DNA of 23,752 nt, taken from UHGV virus genome UHGV-0369329; one strand, 5' to 3'. Position 1 is the stretch's first letter. Each line of letters opens with the position of its first letter. Made by a program: the position numbers and the translations under genes. Origin of the DNA: a virus. The notes beneath the pieces are model-generated. The model worked only from the letters and a program-made list of their open reading frames with translations, was not told the DNA's origin and did no database searches. Positions 25 to 23,390 of the stretch are shown in pieces.

Positions 25-99
25 GTCCTCTTAGTTAAATGGATATAACGAGCCCCTCCTAAGGGCTAATTGCAGGTTCGATTCCTGCAGGGGACACCA
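25..99 (+). tRNA. argW: tRNA-Arg, anticodon CCU, 75 nt with encoded CCA (argW-type)
   Basis: Cloverleaf readable directly: acceptor GTCCTCT/AGGGGAC, D-stem GTTA/TAAC, anticodon stem AGCCC/GGGCT with loop CTCCTAA (anticodon CCT), T-arm GCAGG-TTCGATT-CCTGC, discriminator A, CCA at 97-99. Sequence matches my recollection of E. coli argW. Confidence 0.9.
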
Positions 100-224: not shown

Positions 225-260
225 GTGGATAAAATAATTTTACCCACCGGATTTTTACCC

Positions 261-1418
261 ATGCTCACCGTTAAGCAGATTGAAGCAGCAAAGCCGAAAG
301 AAAAACCATACCGCCTTCTCGATGGTAATGGCCTGTACCTTTATGTTCCTGTATCCGGGAAAAAGGTATGGCAGCTTCGCTACAAGATTGACGGTAAGGA
401 AAAAATACTGACCGTCGGAAAATATCCGCTTATGACTTTGCAGGAGGCAAGGGATAAAGCATGGACCGCGAGGAAAGACATCTCGGTTGGCATCGATCCG
501 GTAAAAGCGAAAAAGGCTTCGTCTAATAACAATTCCTTTAGCGCCATTTACAAGGAATGGTACGAGCACAAGAAGCAAGTATGGTCAGTAGGGTATGCGA
601 CTGAACTTGCCAAAATGTTTGATGACGACATTTTACCCATCATCGGCGGCCTTGAGATTCAGGATATTGAGCCGATGCAACTGCTGGAAGTAATCCGCAG
701 ATTTGAAGATCGCGGTGCAATGGAGCGAGCCAACAAAGCCCGCAGAAGATGCGGCGAGGTTTTCCGTTACGCTATTGTCACCGGAAGGGCTAAATATAAC
801 CCAGCACCTGACCTTGCTGACGCCATGAAAGGATACCGCAAGAAGAACTTCCCGTTTCTTCCAGCAGACCAGATCCCTGCATTCAACAAAGCACTGGCAA
901 CATTTTCAGGAAGCATCGTATCGCTCATTGCGACCAAAGTTTTACGCTACACAGCCCTAAGAACGAAAGAGCTTCGTTCCATGCAATGGAAGAACGTCGA
1001 TTTTGAAAACAGGATTATCACTATCGACGCCAGTGTGATGAAGGGCCGCAAGATTCATGTTGTTCCTATGTCAGACCAGGTGGTTGAACTTCTCACTACG
1101 CTAAGCTCCATCACTAAACCAGTATCAGAGTTTGTTTTTGCCGGGCGCAACGATAAGAAGAAGCCAATCTGCGAGAACGCGGTATTGCTTGTGATCAAAC
1201 AAATCGGCTATGAGGGTCTGGAAAGCGGTCACGGATTCAGGCATGAATTCAGCACGATTATGAACGAGCACGAATGGCCTGCCGACGCCATTGAAGTGCA
1301 ACTGGCACATGCCAACGGCGGTTCTGTGCGCGGGATTTACAACCATGCTCAGTATCTCGATAAGCGCAGAGAAATGATGCAGTGGTGGGCGGACTGGCTT
1401 GATGAGAAGGTGGAGTGA
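261..1418 (+). CDS. intS: Tyrosine recombinase/integrase, P4-family with N-terminal DUF4102-type arm domain; IntS-like, 385 aa
   Basis: ORF track 225..1418 begins at a GTG; the in-frame ATG at 261 (MLTVKQIEAAKPKEKPYRLLDGNGLYLYV) gives 385 aa, matching the IntS N-terminus as I recall it. Catalytic signature present (HGFRHEF, VRGIYNHAQY). Lies directly downstream of the tRNA, co-directional. Confidence 0.9.
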   Translation: MLTVKQIEAAKPKEKPYRLLDGNGLYLYVPVSGKKVWQLRYKIDGKEKILTVGKYPLMTLQEARDKAWTARKDISVGIDPVKAKKASSNNNSFSAIYKEWYEHKKQVWSVGYATELAKMFDDDILPIIGGLEIQDIEPMQLLEVIRRFEDRGAMERANKARRRCGEVFRYAIVTGRAKYNPAPDLADAMKGYRKKNFPFLPADQIPAFNKALATFSGSIVSLIATKVLRYTALRTKELRSMQWKNVDFENRIITIDASVMKGRKIHVVPMSDQVVELLTTLSSITKPVSEFVFAGRNDKKKPICENAVLLVIKQIGYEGLESGHGFRHEFSTIMNEHEWPADAIEVQLAHANGGSVRGIYNHAQYLDKRREMMQWWADWLDEKVE

Positions 1419-1498: not shown

Positions 1499-3496
1499 TT
1501 ATATTGCAGATATTATAAAACATAATAATTCTTCATATCTTATTCCATATCGCTCACCCCCTTCTATAGATATTCTGCGTTCTCCAGTATCATATTCAAT
1601 TAATTTTTCATCACCGGATTCTTCATCAAAAATTATCTTTTTAGCAATTACTGGTTCGTATTCAGTTTCCCATTTATCATAGCAAAAAAGACCATAGTCG
1701 TTTGCATCAAGCCCTTCTTCAGCAAATGCTTTATATACATCTTGGGCAATAATGCCAAAATGTAATCTAGCATTTTCTCCTTTTTCAATTACTGAATCTA
1801 TAAATCTAAAACAACAAACCAAACCCTTTATTTTATATGCAACACGTCTCTCTGCATCAGTAATCGGTCTTTTATCAGTCTTAACTCGACCATCCGATGT
1901 GTTAATCGTTGAAGTGCCAGCAAATATTGTATTCCACCTTCTGGATGCTGAACCGCAATTTCTAGCGTTATCTGTTGCTGGTTGTACCGACGCATCAAAA
2001 CGAGCATAATTATTCTCATCAGAAACAGGTCCCATCAATCCACTCAAAAAAGGGAGCCCGCTCTGATTAGCAATTATTAATTGGTTGTCACCTGAAGAAA
2101 TTGCCGAACCGGCATTGGTTCCGATAAATATATTACCTGTTCCAGAGCTTAACGATCTACCAGATCTATATCCAAGCATTACATTGTTACTTGCCGAACC
2201 AATAGAATTAAGTGAGTCGGCTCCTACTGCGACATTATTCATCCCTGTAGATGTGCCTGTATAAGGGTTATCTATAGAAGAAATCCCTCTTCCTGATCCG
2301 CTACCAATATATGTATTGTTATCTCCATTTGTAATCTCCCTTCCGGATGCATTGCCTATAAATGTGTTATTATTTAGAATGTTATAAGACAACCTTTTGC
2401 CTGATTGGTCTGTAACAATTCCAGCTCGCATTCCAGCCGCTCGACCTATTGCAACATTACCACTACCAGTATGAAGTTGTTGTAATGCACTTGATCCTAC
2501 TGCAACATTAAAATTTCCTTCTTTATTTTCATTTAGGGCATCGCGCCCAATTCCAATTATGTTACTAGCTGTGGTTGATTTTTTGCACGCATTCACACCA
2601 ATTGCTACAATCTCAGTGCCAGTGCATGGCGATGTATCTGTGAGATCGTCTTGAAGGGTATCACCTGATAATACACCTGTCCCAATTGCTGTAATGTTAT
2701 TGCCCGTGCTAATGTTTCTTCCTGCACTTGGTCCAATCGCAACAACTTGCCCGGATATATCATTTCCATTATATATCTTGCCAGCATCAAAACCAAAAAA
2801 AACATTTCCAATTGTCTGAGCAGGATTTGCAAATGGAATAGGTTCGTCTCCTTTACTTTGTATTATTTTACCAGGGCCATAAAATTTTCCATTAATATAG
2901 TTCTCAATTAAATAAGTACCTTGTGGAACATAAACACCGTCAGGTGAAACTGAAGATGCATAGGAAAATATATGTGTTGCGTCAATATTGCCATTAACAA
3001 TGTCGCTAACATCTTCATGTTTTACAAAATCAAGAATACTAATATTCTCTGCATTTTTATCATGCTGTGTTCGTTTTGTAGAATTAATTAAAGGTTGTTT
3101 TACTGTGATTAATGAATCACCAAGCCCATCATCTGAACTTAAAAGTTCTTGCCTTAACTGATCCGGGTCATACTTCAGCACATTAGGAAAATAAAACTGC
3201 TGCGCACCATATGCATCATAAACAGCCATAGAATGGCCTTGCACAGTTACGAACTTGGCAATCTGTCCGTTATATACCGGATATCCGGCAGCGTTAATGA
3301 TTATTGGTTGCGAAACAGGAATGTGAGAACCGTCTTCGTTCTCTACATAAACCTGAATCTGGTTTTCAGGATTTACCGGGTCAGTGTCAATTTTACCGAT
3401 ATAAATTTTGCCATTGGCTACGGCTTTAAAAGAACGCGCCATAGTGAAGAGTTGCGAAGGCATACTCACTACAACATTGGCTGTAATGTCTGTCAT
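1499..3496 (-). CDS. Tailspike/tail fibre: P22 gp9-like N-terminal head-binding domain, glycine-rich repeat fibre, C-terminal intramolecular chaperone (S74-type) domain
   Basis: N-terminus [43 protein letters not shown]...VLKYDPDQ matches the P22 tailspike head-binding domain. The middle has many G-x-x-A/N-rich repeats. The C-terminus has the TSDGRVK autoproteolysis-type motif followed by a chaperone-like domain. GGAG RBS lies 8 nt upstream of the ATG at 3496. Confidence 0.85.
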
Positions 3497-3912: not shown

Positions 3913-4641
3913 TTACGCCACATTTGAGCCATGTAGCAGGTGTTGTAGTGCTTTAACGCCTTCAGAATTGTAACGGAACGCCTCTACCTGTTTGCTGGAA
4001 TGCGCCGATTTATCTAGGAAGAACTTCCCGTACTGCTCAGTTTTGAGGTTGTTTGCGTTAGCAATGCGACCAATCTTGTTGGCCGTTACTCCAAGCTGCT
4101 CTGCAACCTCCCCTGCTGAGTAGTAATGCTCTTCTATTGCCGGAAGAGGTATTGCATTAAAACCAACGAGCGGGTTGATTATACTTGCTGCCGCTGTCTG
4201 CTTTGCCTCAGGCGCAAGATTTGGCATCAGATCGAACAGATTGGTAACAGCTTCAACCGTCATTTTCAATGTTCTCGCTTGACGATACTCAACAAGTCCA
4301 CTCGCTGATTTACCGCTTTTAATGTGCGCTTCTTGCATACTTTCAAGTTGGTCTACCAGTGAGCGGCGAACGGCTTTTGACTCGCGAGCGGCAACTCGCA
4401 ATGCTTGCTTGATTGACATCTCAATGATAACCATCGAAGTTTTGTTCGCTTTTTGCACTACACTTTTTGTGTAGTGCTCTCCATCCAATTCATCTTCAAT
4501 TTTCTCGATGAATTTGTTATTACGAACCTCCGGCTCACCGCACTGTCTACGAGCCTGATTTACCATCTCAAGCAGGCGCTGGCTGTCAATGGTTTTATCC
4601 GTGACAACGGATCCGATGTTTGCTACATTCTTAAAAGTCAT
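3913..4641 (-). CDS. Antirepressor-type protein with C-terminal KilAC/ANT-like segment, 242 aa
   Basis: Start moved to the ATG at 4641 (MTFKNVANIG...), which has an AAGGAA RBS 6 nt upstream; the track ORF starts 17 codons earlier without an RBS. C-terminal YSAGEVAEQLGVTANKIGRIANANNLKTEQYGKFF resembles the KilAC/ANT domain of phage antirepressors. Family assignment is from memory. Confidence 0.55.
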   Translation of the reverse strand: MTFKNVANIGSVVTDKTIDSQRLLEMVNQARRQCGEPEVRNNKFIEKIEDELDGEHYTKSVVQKANKTSMVIIEMSIKQALRVAARESKAVRRSLVDQLESMQEAHIKSGKSASGLVEYRQARTLKMTVEAVTNLFDLMPNLAPEAKQTAAASIINPLVGFNAIPLPAIEEHYYSAGEVAEQLGVTANKIGRIANANNLKTEQYGKFFLDKSAHSSKQVEAFRYNSEGVKALQHLLHGSNVA

Positions 4642-4710
4642 TAGGCATTCCTTATGTGGTAGTAAGGGTGTGACATAGGCCGCCAGCAGCACACTGGCGG
4701 TTTTCTTTTT
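4636..4710 (+). ncRNA. Candidate sar-like antisense RNA, about 75 nt, opposite the RBS and start of the 3913..4641 gene
   Basis: Extended -10 TGcTACATT at 4621-4629 (possible -35 GTGACA at 4601-4606, 17-bp spacer). Intrinsic terminator CCGCCAG-cagcaca-CTGGCGG at 4680-4700 followed by TTTTCTTTTT at 4701-4710. The transcript would be complementary to the AAGGAA RBS (4648-4653) and ATG (4639-4641) of the minus-strand gene. No credible plus-strand CDS here. Confidence 0.45.
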
Positions 4711-4729: not shown

Positions 4730-5356
4730 TCAATGAATCCATTCCTCGCCGCGCAGTTTTGCCAGCATTGGCTGAGCGTTCTTTACGACAAAATTGTTGG
4801 TATCAAGATTCTTCATTTCACGAAGAAGTGATTTCTTGGTTTCTTCTGACATATAGCGAGTCTCATATGCGATATCGTAAATCCTTCCTGAAAGCTCAGA
4901 ACAAATTTGCTTCATTCCTGGGTAGATGTGTTTGCACATTTGTTGACTCTTCTCCATCCACAATTGTAAGTAGCAGAGATTAACCAGTTCTTCGTCAGTA
5001 AACTGTTTTGCAATCGGTGAGCATTCTGCCTGCCGATCCAAAATATCCAGCACCCAGCGGCGGAACTCTTTGGCTACCGGAGTGCGAGCAAACATCGCGA
5101 TTAGGTGGGCACCGCGTAGTGAGAAAACTCGCACTTTTTTGCGATAATTTCCTGAGGTACTCACTTCGAGTACCTGAGTCATTCCGGCGCTAAACTCATC
5201 GCTATACTTGTTATAAATCATTGTTACTGCACGACTATTTGCGTATTTAAGTGCAGATGCAATATTAGATGATGTAAACCAAACACCATGCATATCACGG
5301 GTGGGCACCAACTCAACTCCGTGGAAGTTGTAATCTGATTTTGCTACAATATTCAT
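4730..5356 (-). CDS. Antirepressor (Ant-like) with Bro-N/AntA-type N-terminal domain, 208 aa
   Basis: Start moved to the ATG at 5356 (MNIVAKSDYNFHGVELVP...) with an AAGGAA RBS. HGVWFTSSNIASALKYANSRAVTMI...VRVFSLRGAHLIAMFARTPVAKEFRRWVLDIL fits the Bro-N/antirepressor N-terminal pattern. Sits downstream of the Arc-like gene as in P22 arc-ant. Confidence 0.6.
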   Translation of the reverse strand: MNIVAKSDYNFHGVELVPTRDMHGVWFTSSNIASALKYANSRAVTMIYNKYSDEFSAGMTQVLEVSTSGNYRKKVRVFSLRGAHLIAMFARTPVAKEFRRWVLDILDRQAECSPIAKQFTDEELVNLCYLQLWMEKSQQMCKHIYPGMKQICSELSGRIYDIAYETRYMSEETKKSLLREMKNLDTNNFVVKNAQPMLAKLRGEEWIH

Positions 5357-5431
5357 GTTAGTTTCCTTGCATACGGTTACTGACATAGAAGCCCGACTCG
5401 TGTTCGCGCACTGTCGGGCTTCGCTATTTTT
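5357..5431 (+). ncRNA. Candidate sar-like antisense RNA, about 75 nt, opposite the ant RBS, terminating at the 3' end of the arc-like gene
   Basis: Extended -10 TGcTACAAT at 5342-5350. Terminator hairpin GAAGCCCGAC...GTCGGGCTTC (5388-5422) followed by TATTTTT (5425-5431). The transcript would cover the complement of the ant RBS (5364-5369). Same architecture as P22 sar (promoter near the ant start, terminator at the arc end). Confidence 0.5.
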
Positions 5432-5597
5432 ATGTCCTAGCATTCTTCTCTCCAATCAGTCCGTACACTTTTCTCAATTGATAAATAAGTTCCGTGTTGA
5501 ACTGTCGACACTCTTTTTCTCCATTTCTTTCAATCGCCTTCCTTACATCCTCTGGGAAACGAACCTTGCGTTGATACATGTCTTTTGCTTTTTCCAT
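5430..5597 (-). CDS. Arc-like small ribbon-helix-helix protein, 55 aa; below the length cutoff of the ORF track
   Basis: Hand-translated codon by codon: MEKAKDMYQRKVRFPEDVRKAIERNGEKECRQFNTELIYQLRKVYGLIGEKNART. Strong RBS AAGGAG 5 nt before the ATG at 5597. A beta-strand-like QRKVRFPEDV followed by helix is RHH-like, though the NG...E motif is less canonical than in Arc. Position is upstream of ant and divergent from the Mnt-like gene, as for P22 arc. Confidence 0.5.
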   Translation of the reverse strand: MEKAKDMYQRKVRFPEDVRKAIERNGEKECRQFNTELIYQLRKVYGLIGEKNART

Positions 5598-5720: not shown

Positions 5721-6095
5721 ATGAGTAGAGAAGACCCTCAACTTCGGATTAGGCTTCCTGTTGAATTAAAAAAAATAATTGAAGCGTCATCAAAACAAAA
5801 TAATCGTTCTATGAATGCTGAGATTGTCACTCTGCTTGAGTTGGCGATTCGTGTTTGTCGTGATTTTGGGCCGGAGGATGGTCCTATCGTTCAGCAGTTT
5901 AAAGAACAACTAGATGCGATAAACAGAAAATATGATAAAATCGAGCATGAAAAACTTATACCTCAACTTTTAGAAATCATAGAAAAACAGAAAAAACAAG
6001 TAGATAAACTTATTAGCATGGTTGAAAGATCAATTCCTCTTTCAGAGGAATATAAGCAGAAATATCTTGGTGATGACAACAAAAAACCCACCTGA
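5721..6095 (+). CDS. Mnt-like RHH repressor with extended coiled-coil-like C-terminus, 124 aa; positional equivalent of P22 mnt
   Basis: N-terminus MSREDPQLRIRLPVELKKIIEASSKQNNRSMNAEIV matches the Mnt N-terminus (MARDDPHFNFRMPMEVREKLKFRAEANGRSMNSELL as I recall). Divergent from the arc-like gene with the operator region between. Confidence 0.7.
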   Translation: MSREDPQLRIRLPVELKKIIEASSKQNNRSMNAEIVTLLELAIRVCRDFGPEDGPIVQQFKEQLDAINRKYDKIEHEKLIPQLLEIIEKQKKQVDKLISMVERSIPLSEEYKQKYLGDDNKKPT

Positions 6096-6110: not shown

Positions 6111-7079
6111 TTAGATTTCTGGTTTCATTCTTCCGAAAACCTTTTCTATTCCTTTTTCGTATTCTTCTCTTGTCTCACTCATCGCTGCGACACCAAGAAG
6201 CTTACCGATATGCTGACGCAAAGCCTTGACACCAATTTCAGAAAGGAACAGATGCAACTTATCAGATTGTTTTCCGTTCTCGTCTCGGCTGGCTCTAATT
6301 TGTTCAAGGATTTTACCTTTACTCTTTGCTAGCGGGGTGTATATCTGCATGTTGGTTAGCTGCCCAAAACGAATAGGCCGTCCTTTCTCTGGCCTATTCA
6401 GGCCGTACAGTCGATACCACTCCTCGTATAGCTCATCTGGAAATTCCTTTTCATATTGACGAGCCTCTTCACGAACAAACGCTTTGAACTCGTCAATGAC
6501 AGCCTGAACTTCTGGACGATAACCAGCAAGCGCATACGCAACCCCCTTAATTCCCGCCTTAGCGGAGGCATTAATAAGTCTCTGTGCTGCGGCGGCTGCC
6601 TTTAACCGTGATTGTGGTAGATCGTCATTATCTTTGGCTTCTATTAGTGCCCTACCAATATCAACAATTGCTGTAATGTCATAACCTAACGCTTGATGAA
6701 CGGTTTTAGACTTCGAAGTAAGTTGAAATTTATAGGGATTTTCCATTTTTCGCTGCAATTCTAGATCTCGGTATTTGCTCATATACTGAGCGCCAAGCAG
6801 TTGATCTAAATCCCTGGCATGTTCACCAATCCCTAGCAACTGAGATAATCCAGTTTTCGTAACAACGACAGTTTTCGACTCGTCATCCAGTACATAACAT
6901 TCAGCATCAATGCCAAAATCATCTAAAAAGTTACCACGATGAGTTGCCCTGAGAATCTTACTTTTCCATCTTGCAGCAGCTGCTTTCTTTGCTATTTCAG
7001 AACGCTGCTCTTTAGTCAGCGACTTTGCGCGAGCGATCCCGCCCTTAGCTTTCCCTTCGCCACTTTTCTTTTCAGTCAT
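6111..7079 (-). CDS. Hypothetical 322-aa protein in the sieA/accessory slot; basic N-terminus with HTH-like SEIAKKAAAARW motif
   Basis: Start moved to the ATG at 7079 (MTEKKSGEGKAKGGIARAKSLTKEQRSEIAKKAAAARW...). Hydrophilic with no obvious TM segment. Not recognisable as any P22 structural protein. A possible P63C-type assignment is only a vague recollection. Confidence 0.55.
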   Translation of the reverse strand: MTEKKSGEGKAKGGIARAKSLTKEQRSEIAKKAAAARWKSKILRATHRGNFLDDFGIDAECYVLDDESKTVVVTKTGLSQLLGIGEHARDLDQLLGAQYMSKYRDLELQRKMENPYKFQLTSKSKTVHQALGYDITAIVDIGRALIEAKDNDDLPQSRLKAAAAAQRLINASAKAGIKGVAYALAGYRPEVQAVIDEFKAFVREEARQYEKEFPDELYEEWYRLYGLNRPEKGRPIRFGQLTNMQIYTPLAKSKGKILEQIRASRDENGKQSDKLHLFLSEIGVKALRQHIGKLLGVAAMSETREEYEKGIEKVFGRMKPEI

Positions 7080-7170
7080 AATGCAAGCACCTTTGTTGTG
7101 ATGTATGCTTGCATTATATACACTGTACACACATACAAGCAAGCATAAAGCTAAAACAAAATGCTTGCAT
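7080..7170. repeat. Four copies of a TGCTTGCATTA / ATGCWWGCAT motif in alternating orientation in a divergent intergenic region
   Basis: ATGCAAGCAC at 7081-7090 (reverse), ATGCTTGCAT at 7105-7114, AAGCAAGCAT at 7137-7146 (reverse, partial), ATGCTTGCAT at 7161-7170. Copies at 7105 and 7161 share ATGCTTGCATTA; the copy at 7081 abuts the start codon of the 322-aa gene. Confidence 0.6.
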
Positions 7171-7235
7171 TACAACCGCGCTACTCCAACTACACATTAT
7201 CATCTGGTATCCTGCGCAAAACTAAGGAGGTTGGT

Positions 7236-7424
7236 GTGAAGAAAAAATTTGTAAACGTTGCAAAGTGCGCAATTTTTATATTTTTTATGACCTTTTACGG
7301 ATTTAGTGCCGGAGAAGGTTTCGATCGTGATGCCAATGCATTCAGTTTCTTTTGTCTGTCTATAGTGGTCATAATTGTATGGGTGGAATTAAAGCAAACA
7401 TTGTTTCATGTGCTAGGGAAATAA
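7236..7424 (+). CDS. Small hydrophobic protein, 62 aa, two predicted TM helices; opposite strand to the late operon
   Basis: GTG start at 7236 preceded by a perfect AAGGAGG RBS (7223-7229) at 6-nt spacing. Product VKKKFVNVAKCAIFIFFMTFYGFSAGEGFDRDANAFSFFCLSIVVIIVWVELKQTLFHVLGK has two hydrophobic stretches. The track ORF starts at ATG 7161, which has no RBS. AT-rich, about 36% GC. Confidence 0.6.
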   Translation: MKKKFVNVAKCAIFIFFMTFYGFSAGEGFDRDANAFSFFCLSIVVIIVWVELKQTLFHVLGK

Positions 7425-7441
7425 CCATCCATGGCATTTAG

Positions 7442-9274
7442 TCACTGCTGTGTTGCCTCAGTGGCAAGCAGCGGTCTGATGGCATTCGCAGCGTTATTCA
7501 GCGCTCTTTCATAGGCTGGCGTTCCTGCTTTGGTGTTTGCCAGACGTAAGAGCGCATTCCTGGCCATAGGGCTTTCATAAACCCTCGACATAAGGCCAAT
7601 CCCTGTTTCCCCAGCCAATAGCGCGCCTCCGGTTTTTAGGTTACCAATAACCCTTACCAAAGGCGCGAGTGTCATGCCAGTCTTCGTCACAACATTAGCC
7701 TCAGATGCTCTTTTGGTAGCATCGAGAATAGATAACATCCCCTCTATCTCTTTTCCGTTCTTCCCACCAAATACAGTTTTAAACACCTGACCATTTGCTT
7801 GTTTTTGCAGCTTGCCAAGCTCGGTCATCATTTTCTGAGGGCTGTCACCTACCTTGTCAGCTATTTTGCTGATATATGCCGCCCTTAGCATGTCTTTACC
7901 TTTTTGATCGAGTTTCCCGTACAATCGAGCTATATCTGACCCATATTGTCCATACACAATGGTATTTACAGCCTCGGGAGTTAAATCTCCTTTGTTTAGA
8001 ACGTTTTTAAGGCGCGTTTGAGTTGCATGTGTTGCCATTTTTGCATAATCAGCTTTTCCCGCTCTCCATGCTGAAGCATCTTTTGGGCTAAGTCCTTTCG
8101 CTATAGATTTACTAAGGCTATTGGTTAGCGAGTTATAGACCCTGTCGACCATTGTTTGCGACATTGATGGCAGAACTGTACGATCGCCTTTTACGTCAAT
8201 GCGGAACTGAGTTCTCAGCTTATCAAGTAACTCAAAGGCATCATCTCCATTTGTTATCTCCTGAATGGCATTCTTATAATCATTAAGCGCAGAAATGGTC
8301 TGGGTGTCAGAAACACCTTTAAGTTTCCCAAGTTCGTTTACTGCTCCGTCGATAGCTCTTATGGCGCCACTTGTATCAACTGGCTTTCCAACCATTCTTC
8401 CTGACAGGCTGTTTAGTTTTGACTTGGCTAACGATTTTTCCCTTGCAACGCCTGACTTTAGACTATCAACGACTACAGATGGATCGTAGTCGCCGTATTT
8501 TTCGGTGAAGCGATTAACAAGCTTGGTTCTGGCATCCTGCTGTGCGGCTCTCATTGGTCCAGTACCAGCTATGACTCCTTCTGAGTAACCCTGCAGTTGA
8601 TTGCCAAGTTTTGTTTTTGGAGGAACTACATCCGATGTCATAACTGGTACATCTGCCGCAGCGGCACGCTTGAGCAATTGCTGATCTGCTGGTGATATTT
8701 CGCCACGAACAGCAGTAATTCCACGCCCTATTCCCTTTGCTGCTGCGGAAAGAACCCCCTGAGCGGCAAGGTTAACTCCGGCATTTTTAGCTGCATTTTG
8801 TGCGAAATCGCCTTCCTGATTTGCGGCCTCTGCCAGTGATCCAATAGCCATGCTTCCTGCCGTTCCAACTCCTGGAACTAAATACCCGCCAATTGTTTCT
8901 CCAGCTTGCGCATAAGGGTCTGTTGGTCGATCTACTGGACGATAGACATCGTCCAAAACCTTGGGGCCACCAAGCCCCTGGCTGATTGCATTAATCAGAC
9001 TTGCGCCACCCTGCAATACGTCAAATGGTATGTTTACCAGACCACGACCAGCCTGCTCTGCAATTTGCCCTGCACTTTGACCACCAGTGAGCCAATCGCC
9101 AGCTTGTTGCATCAATGATGGTTCTTCCCGTGTTGGTGCATTATTGTCCTGATTAACTGTTTGTTGCTGAACAGCCTGACCAGCAAAATACTCATCAATG
9201 GCGGTGCCAATATCTTCCGTGCTCGTACCATCAGGGAAGGTAAATGTCTTACCGTTTGCAGTTACTTTCATCAT
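7442..9274 (-). CDS. Ejection (injection) protein, P22 gp16 homologue, 610 aa
   Basis: Size and position (last gene of the virion module, after the gp20 homologue) match P22 gene 16 (609 aa). Assignment is by synteny and length rather than recalled sequence. Confidence 0.8.
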
Positions 9275-13941: not shown

Positions 13942-14403
13942 TCACGTACTCGGATCATCTTTCTCGATGTAAAACCGATTCCACGTAAACGCGCTTTTGT
14001 TACCACTACCGCGAGGCATGTCATTTCGCCGCTCAAGTGGTGGTATTTTGGTTAAAGCGATACAGATTGTCTGATATGCACTGTCAGCAGCGGTAAGGAG
14101 AACGTCTGACGGCTGAATGACGTTATCCATGCACACTTGCACAGCGAGTTTCAAAGCGACGCCATCATTTGCCCATGCAGGGATACCTGAATCATCGTCA
14201 GGTAACGGCATGATGCCGTTTTCTGTATCCGCAAACTGATATCCAAGCTCGATACCTTTCGCCTGCCATGCTGCCATCATGTCTTCGAGGTCATTAATGG
14301 CATCTTCAATTGCCTGAGGGTCGGCATCTGTCAACGTGGCATTGGAATACAGCCCGGCTTTTCGTAAAGCCTTTAGAACGAGATCACCCTTCGTTTTCGC
14401 CAT
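13942..14403 (-). CDS. Tail adaptor, P22 gp4 homologue, 153 aa
   Basis: MAKTKGDLVLKALRKAGLYSNATLTDADPQAIEDAINDLEDMMAAWQ matches the P22 gp4 N-terminus pattern (KTKGDLV..ALRK.G...ATLTD..PQ...DA.DDLE.MMA.W). Confidence 0.85.
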   Translation of the reverse strand: MAKTKGDLVLKALRKAGLYSNATLTDADPQAIEDAINDLEDMMAAWQAKGIELGYQFADTENGIMPLPDDDSGIPAWANDGVALKLAVQVCMDNVIQPSDVLLTAADSAYQTICIALTKIPPLERRNDMPRGSGNKSAFTWNRFYIEKDDPST

Positions 14404-21470: not shown

Positions 21471-21950
21471 TTAAATGATTTGCCAGTCTTCAGCCATCAG
21501 GTCGCCAATGGATGGAACCCATGTAGCAAGGCGGTTCTGTGAGTTTTTCAATACAAGCGTGTCATTGAAAGTTGGCTCGCCAACATATTCGCCAAAGCCA
21601 TAACCCAACGCAGACGCTAATTTTCCCCCTTTCACGAGATAAACAAACTGGTCTTTCCCATTCCATCCTGCCCGCTGCAAACTTTTGCCCTGTTTTAACG
21701 CTTCCATGGCAAGGCCGAAACTTAGCCCTGATACCGGACGATAAGCCTTTTCGAATACTTCTTTTGGACTCCAGCTAACGTAGCCATCAAAGCGATCGGT
21801 GTTAGGTTTTCCGCCATCCAGATATTCAACCAGATAGCCTTCGTCCTCGCCGTTTTCTCCGGCAGGAAGCTGCCAGCCACGAAAATCGTTATATGCCTGT
21901 CTCGTCATCGGAAAGGCGTTAATCAGTTTTACGCCAATATGCTGGGTCAT
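21471..21950 (-). CDS. Hypothetical late protein with DUF2829/Tad2-like C-terminal half (candidate signalling-nucleotide sponge)
   Basis: The track ORF 21471..22073 begins at a TTG without an RBS. The first ATG is at 21950 (MTQHIGVKL...), another at 21908. C-terminal FGLAMEALKQGKSLQRAGWNGK...TWVPSIGDLMAEDWQII resembles the DUF2829 pattern as I remember it. Start position is uncertain. Confidence 0.5.
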   Translation of the reverse strand: MTQHIGVKLINAFPMTRQAYNDFRGWQLPAGENGEDEGYLVEYLDGGKPNTDRFDGYVSWSPKEVFEKAYRPVSGLSFGLAMEALKQGKSLQRAGWNGKDQFVYLVKGGKLASALGYGFGEYVGEPTFNDTLVLKNSQNRLATWVPSIGDLMAEDWQII

Positions 21951-22172
21951 AAAATTACCTATGCAGTTGGGAATAAAAAGCCCCGCAAATGCGAGGCTAA
22001 ATCCTGGTATTTGTAATGAACTGGCTCTTATCTCAACGCAGCCCCTTACCGCGCGCCATATGCTCAATATCAAGCATCAGCAATGAGATGTTTAATCTGG
22101 ATTTACTCCAGAAGTGACCACCACCCTGTCTACAGAGCCAGATGTGAAGGATGATGAGTAAAATTATCGCTA

Positions 22173-22610
22173 TCATCGAAGGCATTGCGTCCTGATGTAT
22201 TCCTGCAGGTAGTTAACCTGCGCGGTTATCTTGTCAATTCCACTTCGGAGACGGTAATAATTGAGTTCAGCATCTGCTGTAAGTCCTGGGCTTTCTCCAT
22301 CGCCCATGCTGCTGGCTCCGGTCGTTGACTTTGCACAGGTGGCGGCGACTTGCAGGCGCTTACGCCCAGCAGAAACATCAGCACGTAGACTTTCGATAGT
22401 CGCGTTAGCATCAGCAAGTTCCTTTGTATATCTGGCATCGAGTTCAGCTACATCACGTTGACGCTTCTGCATATCAGCGATAGTGGATGCGGCTTTGTCG
22501 CGCTGCTCTTTGTAGGTCATGGCGTTATCACGGTAATGATTAACCACCCATGACAGACATACGATGATGCAGATAACCAGAGCGGAGATAATCGCGGTGA
22601 CTCTGCTCAT
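22173..22610 (-). CDS. Rz: Spanin Rz (i-spanin), lambda Rz-like, 145 aa
   Basis: [21 protein letters not shown](V)VNHYRDNA... matches the lambda Rz N-terminus; ATGA overlap with the R stop. Confidence 0.9.
22226..22411 (-). CDS. Rz1: Spanin Rz1 (o-spanin lipoprotein) embedded in the +1 frame of Rz, 61 aa
   Basis: Embedded ORF with signal peptide and lipobox ([20 protein letters not shown]), proline-rich mature part. The ATG at 22411 has an AAAGGAA RBS; an alternative ATG at 22438 lacks one. Confidence 0.75.
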
Positions 22611-23083
22611 ACCTCAATCTCTCTGACCGTTCCGCCTGCTTCTTTGAATTTTGCAATCAGGTTGTCAACCTTATGCTCGAACTGACCATAACCAGCGCCC
22701 GGAAGTGAAGCCCAGATATTGCTGCAACGGTCGATTGCCTGACGGATATCACCGCGATCAATCATCGGTAAAGCGCCGCGCTCTTTAATCTGCTGCAGTG
22801 CAACAGCGTCCTGGCTTTTGGGAGAGAAGTCTTTCAGGCCAAGCTGCTTACGGTAAGCATCCCACCAACGGGAAAGAAGCTGGTAACGTCCGGCTGCTGT
22901 TGATTTGAGTTTTGGGTTTAGCGTGACAAGTTTGCGAGGGTGATCGGAGTAATCAGTGAATAGCTCTCCGCCAACAATGACGTCATAACCATGATTTCTT
23001 GTTTTTTGACGTCCGTTATCAGTTCCCTCTGACCACGCCAGCATATCGAGGAACGCCTTACGTTGATTATTGATTTCCACCAT
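22607..23083 (-). CDS. R: Endolysin, lambda R-type lytic transglycosylase, 158 aa
   Basis: [99 protein letters not shown] is essentially the lambda R sequence as I recall it. Confidence 0.95.
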
Positions 23084-23390
23084 CTTCTACTCCGGCTTTT
23101 TTAGCAGCGAAGCGTTTGATAAGCGAACCAATCGAGTCAGTACCGATGTAGCCGATGAACACGCTCGTTATATAAGCGAGATTGCTACTTAGTCCGGCGA
23201 AGTCGAGAAGGTCACGAATGAACCAGGCGATAATGGCGCACATCGTTGCGTCGATTACTGTTTTTGTAAACGCACCGCCATTATATCTGCCGCGAAGGTA
23301 CGCCATTGCAAACGCAAGGATTGCCCCGATGCCTTGTTCCTTTGCCGCGAGAATGGCGGCTAACAGGTCATGTTTTTCTGGCATCTTCAT
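23067..23390 (-). CDS. S: Holin, lambda S-type with dual-start motif (S107/S105), 107 aa
   Basis: [107 protein letters not shown] is near-identical to lambda S. ATGs at 23390 and 23384 give the Met1-Lys2-Met3 dual start. Confidence 0.95.

Follow-up and report, generated by a model that had tools for sequence, protein, structure and literature searches.

A 62-residue predicted membrane hairpin in the sieA position of P22-like prophages is a candidate superinfection-exclusion protein

The window that we analysed is the whole of a 23,752-nucleotide stretch (UHGV virus genome UHGV-0369329), a P22-like (Lederbergvirus) prophage adjoining a tRNA and an integrase gene; its features are collected in Table 1. 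The minus strand carries the late genes, which run from gene 16 via genes 20 and 7 to the head genes. A gene for a 62-aa protein lies on the plus strand, and its stop codon is separated by 17 nt from that of gene 16. The preliminary description of this locus had the small gene running against the late operon and convergent with gp16, and this is what we found. The gene is inside the hypervariable non-structural insert between genes 16 and 9, the fast-changing region known as the 'ant moron' of P22-like phages (Villafane et al. 2008, PMC2629481), where the window also has Mnt/Arc-like, antirepressor and P63C genes. The product of gene 16 carries the RefSeq name 'P22-gp16 family phage DNA ejection protein' and is 54% identical to P22 gp16 over the full length, with near identity in the N-terminal 120 residues and in a large part of the final ~60.

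Several of the neighbouring genes have features of their own. The tandem antirepressor-type genes differ from each other, one matching the PHROG 1726 anti-repressor and the other having Bro-N plus P22_AR_C, and the Arc/Mnt-like protein is unusually long (124 aa). Between the lysis cassette and the packaging genes there is a gene whose 200-aa product has a Tad2-like (Thoeris anti-defence 2) domain at its C-terminus (PF11195, E=1.5e-21). An Rfam scan of the window matched the tRNA only, with no RNA family near the 62-aa gene.

Table 1. Features of the window, with the 23-aa ORF of phage BTP1 for comparison (last row, in the numbering of that sequence).
Feature	Position	Strand	Remarks
tRNA	25-96		
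Integrase gene (int)	225-1418		
Tailspike gene	1499-3496	minus	
Antirepressor-type gene	3913-4692	minus	
Antirepressor-type gene	4730-5455	minus	
Arc/Mnt-like gene	5721-6095	plus	
P63C-domain gene	6111-7079	minus	Pfam PF10546, E=7e-14; divergent from the 62-aa gene
Divergent intergenic region	7078-7172		Between the P63C gene start and the 62-aa gene; two operator-like inverted-repeat pairs, TAATGCAAGCA/TGCTTGCATTA (12/12, 16 nt apart) and GCAAGCAT/ATGCTTGC
Candidate -10 element TATCAT	7198-7203		
Candidate -10 element TGgTATCCT	7205-7213		
sieA-type leader TGGTATCCTGCGCAAAACTAAGGAGGTTGGTGTG	7205-7238	plus	5' UTR/promoter-proximal element, Shine-Dalgarno and GTG; left boundary of the slot
Shine-Dalgarno AAGGAGG	7224-7230	plus	5-nt spacer to GTG
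CDS, 62 aa, MKKKFVNVAKCAIFIFFMTFYGFSAGEGFDRDANAFSFFCLSIVVIIVWVELKQTLFHVLGK	7236-7424	plus	GTG 7236-7238; stop TAA 7422-7424
Predicted transmembrane helix 1, residues about 8-26	7257-7313	plus	Hydropathy, family alignment, AF2
Predicted transmembrane helix 2, residues about 36-52	7341-7391	plus	Hydropathy, family alignment, AF2
3' linker CCATCCATGGC	7425-7435	plus	Directly after the stop codon; right boundary of the slot
Gene 16 homologue (DNA-ejection protein gp16, 610 aa)	7442-9274	minus	Convergent with the 62-aa gene
Tad2-like-domain gene	21471-22073	minus	
Lysis cassette: lambda-S-type holin (PF05106), endolysin, Rz	22173-23390	minus	
23-aa ORF MERDLLNFVFLIFGLVVGKLLFA of BTP1 (L138, LT714109)	14011-14082	minus	Inside STnc6030

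The ORF starts with a GTG at 7236, five bases after TAAGGAGG (7223-7230), and the AAGGAGG at good spacing that the preliminary description had pointed to can be read directly. This heptamer occurs once in the window with both strands counted, and 2.2 occurrences are expected by chance; the motif alone is not beyond chance, the ORF is. The translated protein matches the PHROG 21338 profile from end to end (62/62 positions, E=4.3e-45), a family that is catalogued as being of unknown function. For the E. coli, Salmonella and Serratia alleles we obtained dN/dS values of 0.16–0.42 in frame and 0.7–1.5 in the two other frames, from counts that are small (8–10 synonymous versus 11–13 non-synonymous differences) and consistent between pairs. 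Length, topology and start position are conserved in relatives spanning 31–98% identity. Judged by these comparisons, the ORF is a genuine gene under purifying selection. It is also AT-rich, as had been described (about 36% GC): the window as a whole has 47.3% GC, whereas 7223-7424 has 35.6% and the ORF 34.9%.

E. coli and Salmonella use GTG as the start codon, for which one E. coli-type allele, Serratia and three distant relatives have an ATG in the aligned position. RefSeq/PGAP leaves the gene unannotated in the majority of the 89 carrier E. coli genomes (see below) and otherwise sometimes calls an 87-aa version (WP_021547413.1), which begins inside the leader/operator region. We rejected this 87-aa reading from ATG 7161 because the extra 25 codons are a leader that fronts unrelated proteins; in a protein search these upstream 'codons' were conserved yet fused to different proteins. 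Since they are common to unrelated genes, and since the ATG of the distant relatives aligns with the GTG, we take the 62-aa start to be correct.

At an identity of at least 99%, the 62-aa protein is present in 89 of the 5426 complete E. coli genomes (1.6%), and the gene is intact in all 89 of them. E. coli strains CFSAN018748 and APEC IMT5155 are carriers, as are the hosts of phage phiv205-1. Alleles that are ~80% identical are found in Salmonella enterica and Serratia fonticola, and many Salmonella genomes carry the 62-aa gene. Searching 1.8 billion representative proteins with a profile brought in only a few further relatives, at 31–60% identity (61–66 aa), which keep the length, the start position and the two-helix pattern, and a scan with one genome per species returned a single locus, in Serratia fonticola. 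The PHROG 21338-type family is narrow. The preliminary description had staked the gene on its conservation in related elements, and this is borne out by the E. coli, Salmonella and Serratia alleles together with the relatives at 31–60% identity in P22-like prophages. All of the distant relatives that we examined are convergent with the gp16 gene, in divergent P22-like prophages. In five loci (L133-L137) a family member is the sole gene between gene 16 and the tailspike gene, so the family has long been associated with this position, independently of the other genes of the 'ant moron'.

In some Salmonella prophages (5/29 lipoprotein loci) the 62-aa gene is the second gene, behind one for a 161-aa lipoprotein, and has its own Shine-Dalgarno sequence there, so it can be an add-on and not only a replacement. 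We had considered the 161-aa gene upstream of these Salmonella homologues as a possible SieA (see below) and rejected it because its product is a lipoprotein. The Serratia fonticola locus (L009, 5560-7196) has a Rap1a-like gene (type VI secretion immunity, PF18602) before the family member and a 329-aa remnant of the gp16 C-terminus after it, and looks like a decayed P22-like prophage that kept the small gene.

The two hydrophobic helices of the preliminary description are seen both in the Kyte-Doolittle profile, with hydrophobic stretches at residues about 8–26 and 36–52, and in the AlphaFold2 model, which is a helical hairpin (H2-25 + H29-59) with a mean pLDDT of 87.7. The N-terminus has a net charge of +4, the loop one of -2 and the C-terminus one of +1, and these fit a hairpin with both ends in the cytoplasm (N-in/C-in). 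The product is therefore predicted to be a two-helix inner-membrane hairpin in this orientation. In the family alignment K10, F14, M18 and G22 of helix 1 are invariant, and their i, i+4 spacing puts them on one face of the helix; in helix 2 the conserved residues are S37, F38, I43, I46, I47, W49, E51 and K53. The invariant face would suggest that helix 1 has a function in the membrane and is not removed as a signal peptide. Alternatively, it may be cleaved as a signal peptide after S-A-G.

Searches with the protein did not assign it to anything known. Foldseek against viral structures gave no significant match, as expected of helical hairpins, and PADLOC models gave 0 families at E<=1. A Pfam scan found no family at E<=5, with a library that presumably includes Imm_superinfect. 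The NCBI-style names from protein searches gave the 62-aa protein no function.

The sequence in front of the gene was more informative. The 34 nt at 7205-7238 match the P22 sieA leader, GTG included, with 97% identity; the P22 reference at this site reads ...TGGTATCCTGCACAAAACTAAGGAGGTTGGTGTG-sieA. In the window the leader TGGTATCCTGCRCAAAACTAAGGAGGTTGGTGTG is fused to the 62-aa gene at the start codon, and behind the stop codon there is a short linker (CCATCCNTGGC, 7425-7435) which is followed by the gene 16 stop codon. We call this arrangement the 'sieA expression slot', a category defined in this analysis, and the gene in it the cargo. A megablast with the 40-nt leader was too insensitive (1 match), and we used an exact-pattern scan of IMG/VR, which found the 22-nt core of the leader (7206-7227) in 112 stretches. 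Across 116 loci the leader fronts about 14 unrelated cargo families (13 by blastp clustering, 14 by a finer split). The cargos are nearly all envelope proteins, with transmembrane helices, a signal peptide or a lipoprotein signal: P22 SieA, the 62-aa protein, the 161-aa lipoprotein, three kinds of single-helix coiled-coil proteins (107–109 aa), a 129-aa and a 99-aa signal-peptide protein, a 116-aa four-helix protein, a 149-aa and a 103-aa single-helix protein, a 75-aa two-helix protein, a 68-aa YobH-like protein (PF13996) and one apparently soluble 140-aa protein. SieA excepted, none of the cargos scanned has a known function.

The linker, CCATCC[A/T/G]TGGC or CCATCCNTGGC, comes immediately behind the stop codon of most cargos, among them many unrelated ones. 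Variants of it are behind P22 sieA (L008, about 3323-3334) and the sieA of E. coli prophage HS1, and it also divides tandem cassettes (L015 6190-6200, L132 5975-5985). It is able to form a 4-bp stem with a 4-nt loop. In five Salmonella loci (L015-L019) the 62-aa gene and linker are followed by a 22-aa ORF with a Shine-Dalgarno sequence (6216-6284, MVTVGWIIVALLVALWAKNRYY) that overlaps the gene 16 3' end on the opposite strand, and the same sequence is also found behind two other cargos (99-aa and 68-aa).

At least 10 upstream contexts combine freely with the cargos, the P63C gene of the window being one among at least 10 alternative upstream neighbours of the slot. The 62-aa gene is found in at least seven of these contexts, and the P22-type context is found with nine cargos. 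Homology with other prophages breaks on both sides of the 62-aa gene, and the same E. coli allele adjoins gp16 proteins that differ at the C-terminus and are 610, 621 and 743 aa long. By these breaks, contexts and varied gp16 neighbours the 62-aa gene is a separately exchanged module, in agreement with the separate acquisition proposed earlier. Because it has the same leader and the same 3' linker as sieA, it has been swapped in by recombination at these boundary sequences. The presence of one allele beside gp16 proteins with unrelated C-termini gives no sign that the small protein and the resident gp16 are co-adapted; there is a loose association of cargo type with the type of gp16 C-terminus, but it is confounded by linkage and is uninformative. 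The 'ant moron' has been described at the level of gene content, and as far as we could find its published description differs from ours in having no leader and linker that frame a single cargo position.

Upstream of the leader, the divergent intergenic region presumably holds promoters, and its repeats look like regulator binding sites for one or both of them. In addition, ATGCTTGCATTA is repeated at 7105 and 7161. We found no consensus -35 near the candidate -10 elements, and a consensus promoter and terminator scan of 6900-7600 found nothing. The annotated PsieA hexamers of P22 fall in sequence that is not conserved in the window, which upstream of 7192-7205 diverges from both P22 and HS1. 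The first terminator-like site downstream of the 62-aa ORF is weak and lies at 7976-7991.

SieA types A, B and C are inner-membrane superinfection-exclusion proteins of P22-like prophages (Leavitt et al. 2024, PMC10883804). One copy in the chromosome is enough for full exclusion with P22 sieA and only 85 bp upstream, and for full exclusion of P22-like phages with HS1 sieA and 106 bp upstream (PMC10883804). The type B sieA of HS1 has a diverged copy of the leader. One IMG/VR locus with the 62-aa gene (L045) is 98.3% identical to HS1 over 824 nt ending at the Shine-Dalgarno sequence; the 106 bp cloned with HS1 sieA come from this upstream DNA. The cargos, the 62-aa gene in L045 and the gene for the 212-aa type B SieA in HS1, have no similarity and take up exactly the stretch where identity is lost. 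Some 26 nt behind the stop codon, where gene 16 has its 3' end, the two sequences are similar again. At the level of the alignment, this is a clean allelic replacement of type B sieA by the 62-aa gene. In the loci examined, sieA and the 62-aa family are mutually exclusive and never co-occur: the 62-aa gene is in 0/10 complete SieA-A loci, and tblastn with SieA-A and SieA-B found neither in the window or in the family-carrying loci (23 stretches, up to ~8 kb per side).

We also considered the 62-aa protein as a homologue of SieA and rejected this. An hhalign comparison of the family alignment with P22 SieA gave a probability of 0.4%, the tblastn search was negative, and the SieA motif FxRYPxEAxxFNK (PMC10883804), which is present in P22 and HS1 SieA, is missing. 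SieA is assigned to PHROG 7745, distinct from PHROG 21338. What the two have in common is the setting. Both are in the slot after gene 16 and convergent with it, with a gap of 17–22 nt, and both have the common leader, the Shine-Dalgarno sequence, the GTG and a related 3' linker; the 62-aa gene and all of its relatives lie between genes 16 and 9, as sieA does, and the protein is likewise predicted to be in the inner membrane. In contrast, SieA proteins are 164–212 aa long with 3–5 helices, at least three transmembrane segments being part of how SieA is recognized, whereas the 62-aa protein has two hydrophobic helices. The comparison also bears on SieA itself, for which the start is uncertain (162 or 164 aa; Leavitt et al., PMC10883804). 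The cargo-swap junction is right after the GTG in all cargo families (in P22, L008 3829-3831), which supports the 164-aa GTG start.

A second case of exclusion is known from this position. STnc6030 of phage BTP1 is a transcript that is strongly expressed in lysogens and was reported as an antisense RNA (Owen et al. 2020, PMC7067206). Cells with it are totally immune to BTP1 but not to P22, and induction is undisturbed; the four SNPs that allowed escape were all non-synonymous and near the gp16 C-terminus. As none of its ORFs exceeds 60 aa, the authors called the transcript non-coding (PMC7067206). Escape mutants of P22 SieA also include changes in the gp16 C-terminal region. STnc6030 resembles the 62-aa gene in its gene 16-tailspike position and orientation and in being antisense to the 3' end of gene 16. 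The DNA upstream of it in BTP1 has homologues in front of distant members of the 62-aa family; the window has no significant DNA similarity to BTP1 in the gene 16-tailspike region. STnc6030 differs in that its published mechanism is RNA-based and in having, in place of a family member, a 23-aa hydrophobic ORF with a GGAGG Shine-Dalgarno sequence within the 155-nt gene 16-tailspike spacer. The start of this ORF aligns with the starts of those distant family members. The ORF is conserved in about 20 IMG/VR relatives with two substitutions, a variation too low for a coding-constraint test. STnc6030 may act through this encoded 23-aa membrane peptide, and such an action would explain both the escape mutations in gp16 residues and the unaffected induction.

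With the place and the translation signals of sieA, the 62-aa gene is a good candidate for a new exclusion protein. We put at about even the chances that it encodes a prophage-expressed inner-membrane excluder of P22-like phages which acts via the gp16/gp20 conduit or a host partner. The gene would be expressed from the prophage, as sieA is, which we infer from the expression of sieA and STnc6030. The product would be placed in the cytoplasmic membrane, and the hairpin would there block genome delivery by superinfecting P22-like phages. Helix-helix contacts could disturb the membrane insertion or the function of the gp16/gp20 ejection-protein conduit; an alternative target would be a host inner-membrane partner that the conduit needs. 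Prophage expression and superinfection exclusion had both been raised in the preliminary description, and they seem better grounded now through the sieA leader and the HS1 replacement. A shared slot with sieA does not prove a shared function.

Small inner-membrane proteins that block phage DNA entry are known from other phages, such as T4 Imm. HK97 gp15 is another small inner-membrane blocker (cited in PMC10883804). The 62-aa protein appears comparable to these injection blockers in its small size and topology, as a protein with one or two helices that is encoded by the excluding phage and is proposed to act at the cytoplasmic membrane. It has no detectable homology to either, and they come from other phage lineages.

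A broader proposal, which we can offer only tentatively and would not expect to hold in full, is that the position after gene 16 is a dedicated 'exclusion slot' in which shuffled envelope cargos each block ejection-protein-mediated DNA entry. The fixed leader and the short 3' linker would then serve as recombination boundaries, with cargos sometimes in tandem, and the cargos would include SieA A/B, the 62-aa hairpin, the lipoprotein, the coiled-coil and periplasmic proteins and the 22-23-aa peptides.

The diversity of the cargos can also be read in another way. Many small bacterial membrane proteins modulate host inner-membrane proteins, and the 62-aa protein could be a host-directed lysogenic-conversion factor which acts on an inner-membrane protein or envelope property (a transporter, a sensor kinase, stress tolerance). 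The very diverse cargos, with a YobH-like protein (PF13996) among them and a Rap1a-like T6SS immunity gene adjacent to the family member in Serratia, would suggest a general moron landing site and not a dedicated exclusion locus, and the region was already known as the fast-changing 'ant moron' (PMC2629481). We think this unlikely, though, as the family is found only in P22-like prophages and always beside gene 16, persists even where the region has no other non-structural gene, and has replaced sieA allele for allele; moreover, both functional results for the gene 16-tailspike position, SieA and STnc6030, are exclusion. An excluder in the membrane also has to be weighed against an RNA, namely a lysogenic transcript that reads into gene 16 antisense, would target incoming or late-operon mRNA, and for which the ORF is secondary. 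The convergent arrangement with 17 nt between the stops, with no terminator-like site before the weak one at 7976-7991, would allow this, and an asRNA model has been published for BTP1 at the equivalent position (PMC7067206). As the sole function it is improbable in our view: selection has been purifying on the protein, with the out-of-frame controls near 1, the ORF, its start and the residues of the helix face are kept where synonymous sites are saturated, the Shine-Dalgarno sequence is strong, and the window has no significant DNA similarity to BTP1 here. An antisense role may exist alongside the protein.

The preliminary description had also offered a toxin or holin-like effector, and for this we found no support. 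Such a membrane-damaging product (type I-toxin-like, abortive-infection or a holin/antiholin-like peptide) would depolarise or permeabilise the membrane once triggered. In its favour, the 62-aa protein is small, very hydrophobic and, like class II holins, has two helices; the gene is also AT-rich, and its convergent transcription could put it under antisense control. We nevertheless found nothing suggesting toxicity. The prophage has its own complete lysis cassette with a lambda-S-type holin elsewhere, while the 62-aa gene has neither the lysis-cassette location nor the late-operon orientation of a class II holin or pinholin gene. The C-terminal tail of its product has 12 residues with a net charge of +1 and would not seem to be the highly charged cytoplasmic tail of class II holins, PADLOC gave no match, and the gene is intact in every carrier E. 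coli genome. A toxin would be expected to kill the lysogen, because the strong, unsequestered Shine-Dalgarno sequence is behind a sieA-type constitutive leader, and we consider this explanation very improbable. The ORF could also be spurious, or only the leader and linker might matter, for instance as recombination or transcription signals; the gene is mostly unannotated in RefSeq and AAGGAGG alone is not improbable. The PHROG match, the in-frame purifying selection and the length, topology and start that are conserved at 31–98% identity essentially refute this on sequence grounds, and we give it next to no credence.

The hypervariable region between genes 16 and 9 and sieA are already known, and the 62-aa family is known as 'unknown function'. 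Our literature search, with older P22/HK620 papers outside it, found nothing on the 62-aa gene, on the shared leader and linker, or on the list of cargos. Superinfection exclusion at the inner membrane is poorly understood, and for P22-like phages only SieA has been studied; how SieA recognizes very divergent ejection proteins is a question that was raised by its discoverers. If the 62-aa protein is indeed an excluder, a 62-residue hairpin that replaces sieA would be the smallest tool for probing the block of the gp16/gp20 DNA conduit. Further candidates can be picked out simply by the conserved leader and linker, and about a dozen families are already listed here. The 62-aa gene may influence which hosts P22-like and therapeutic podophages can infect. 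If it turns out to have no anti-phage effect, the slot would be a general expression site for envelope morons, which would itself be useful for reading the cargo of prophages.
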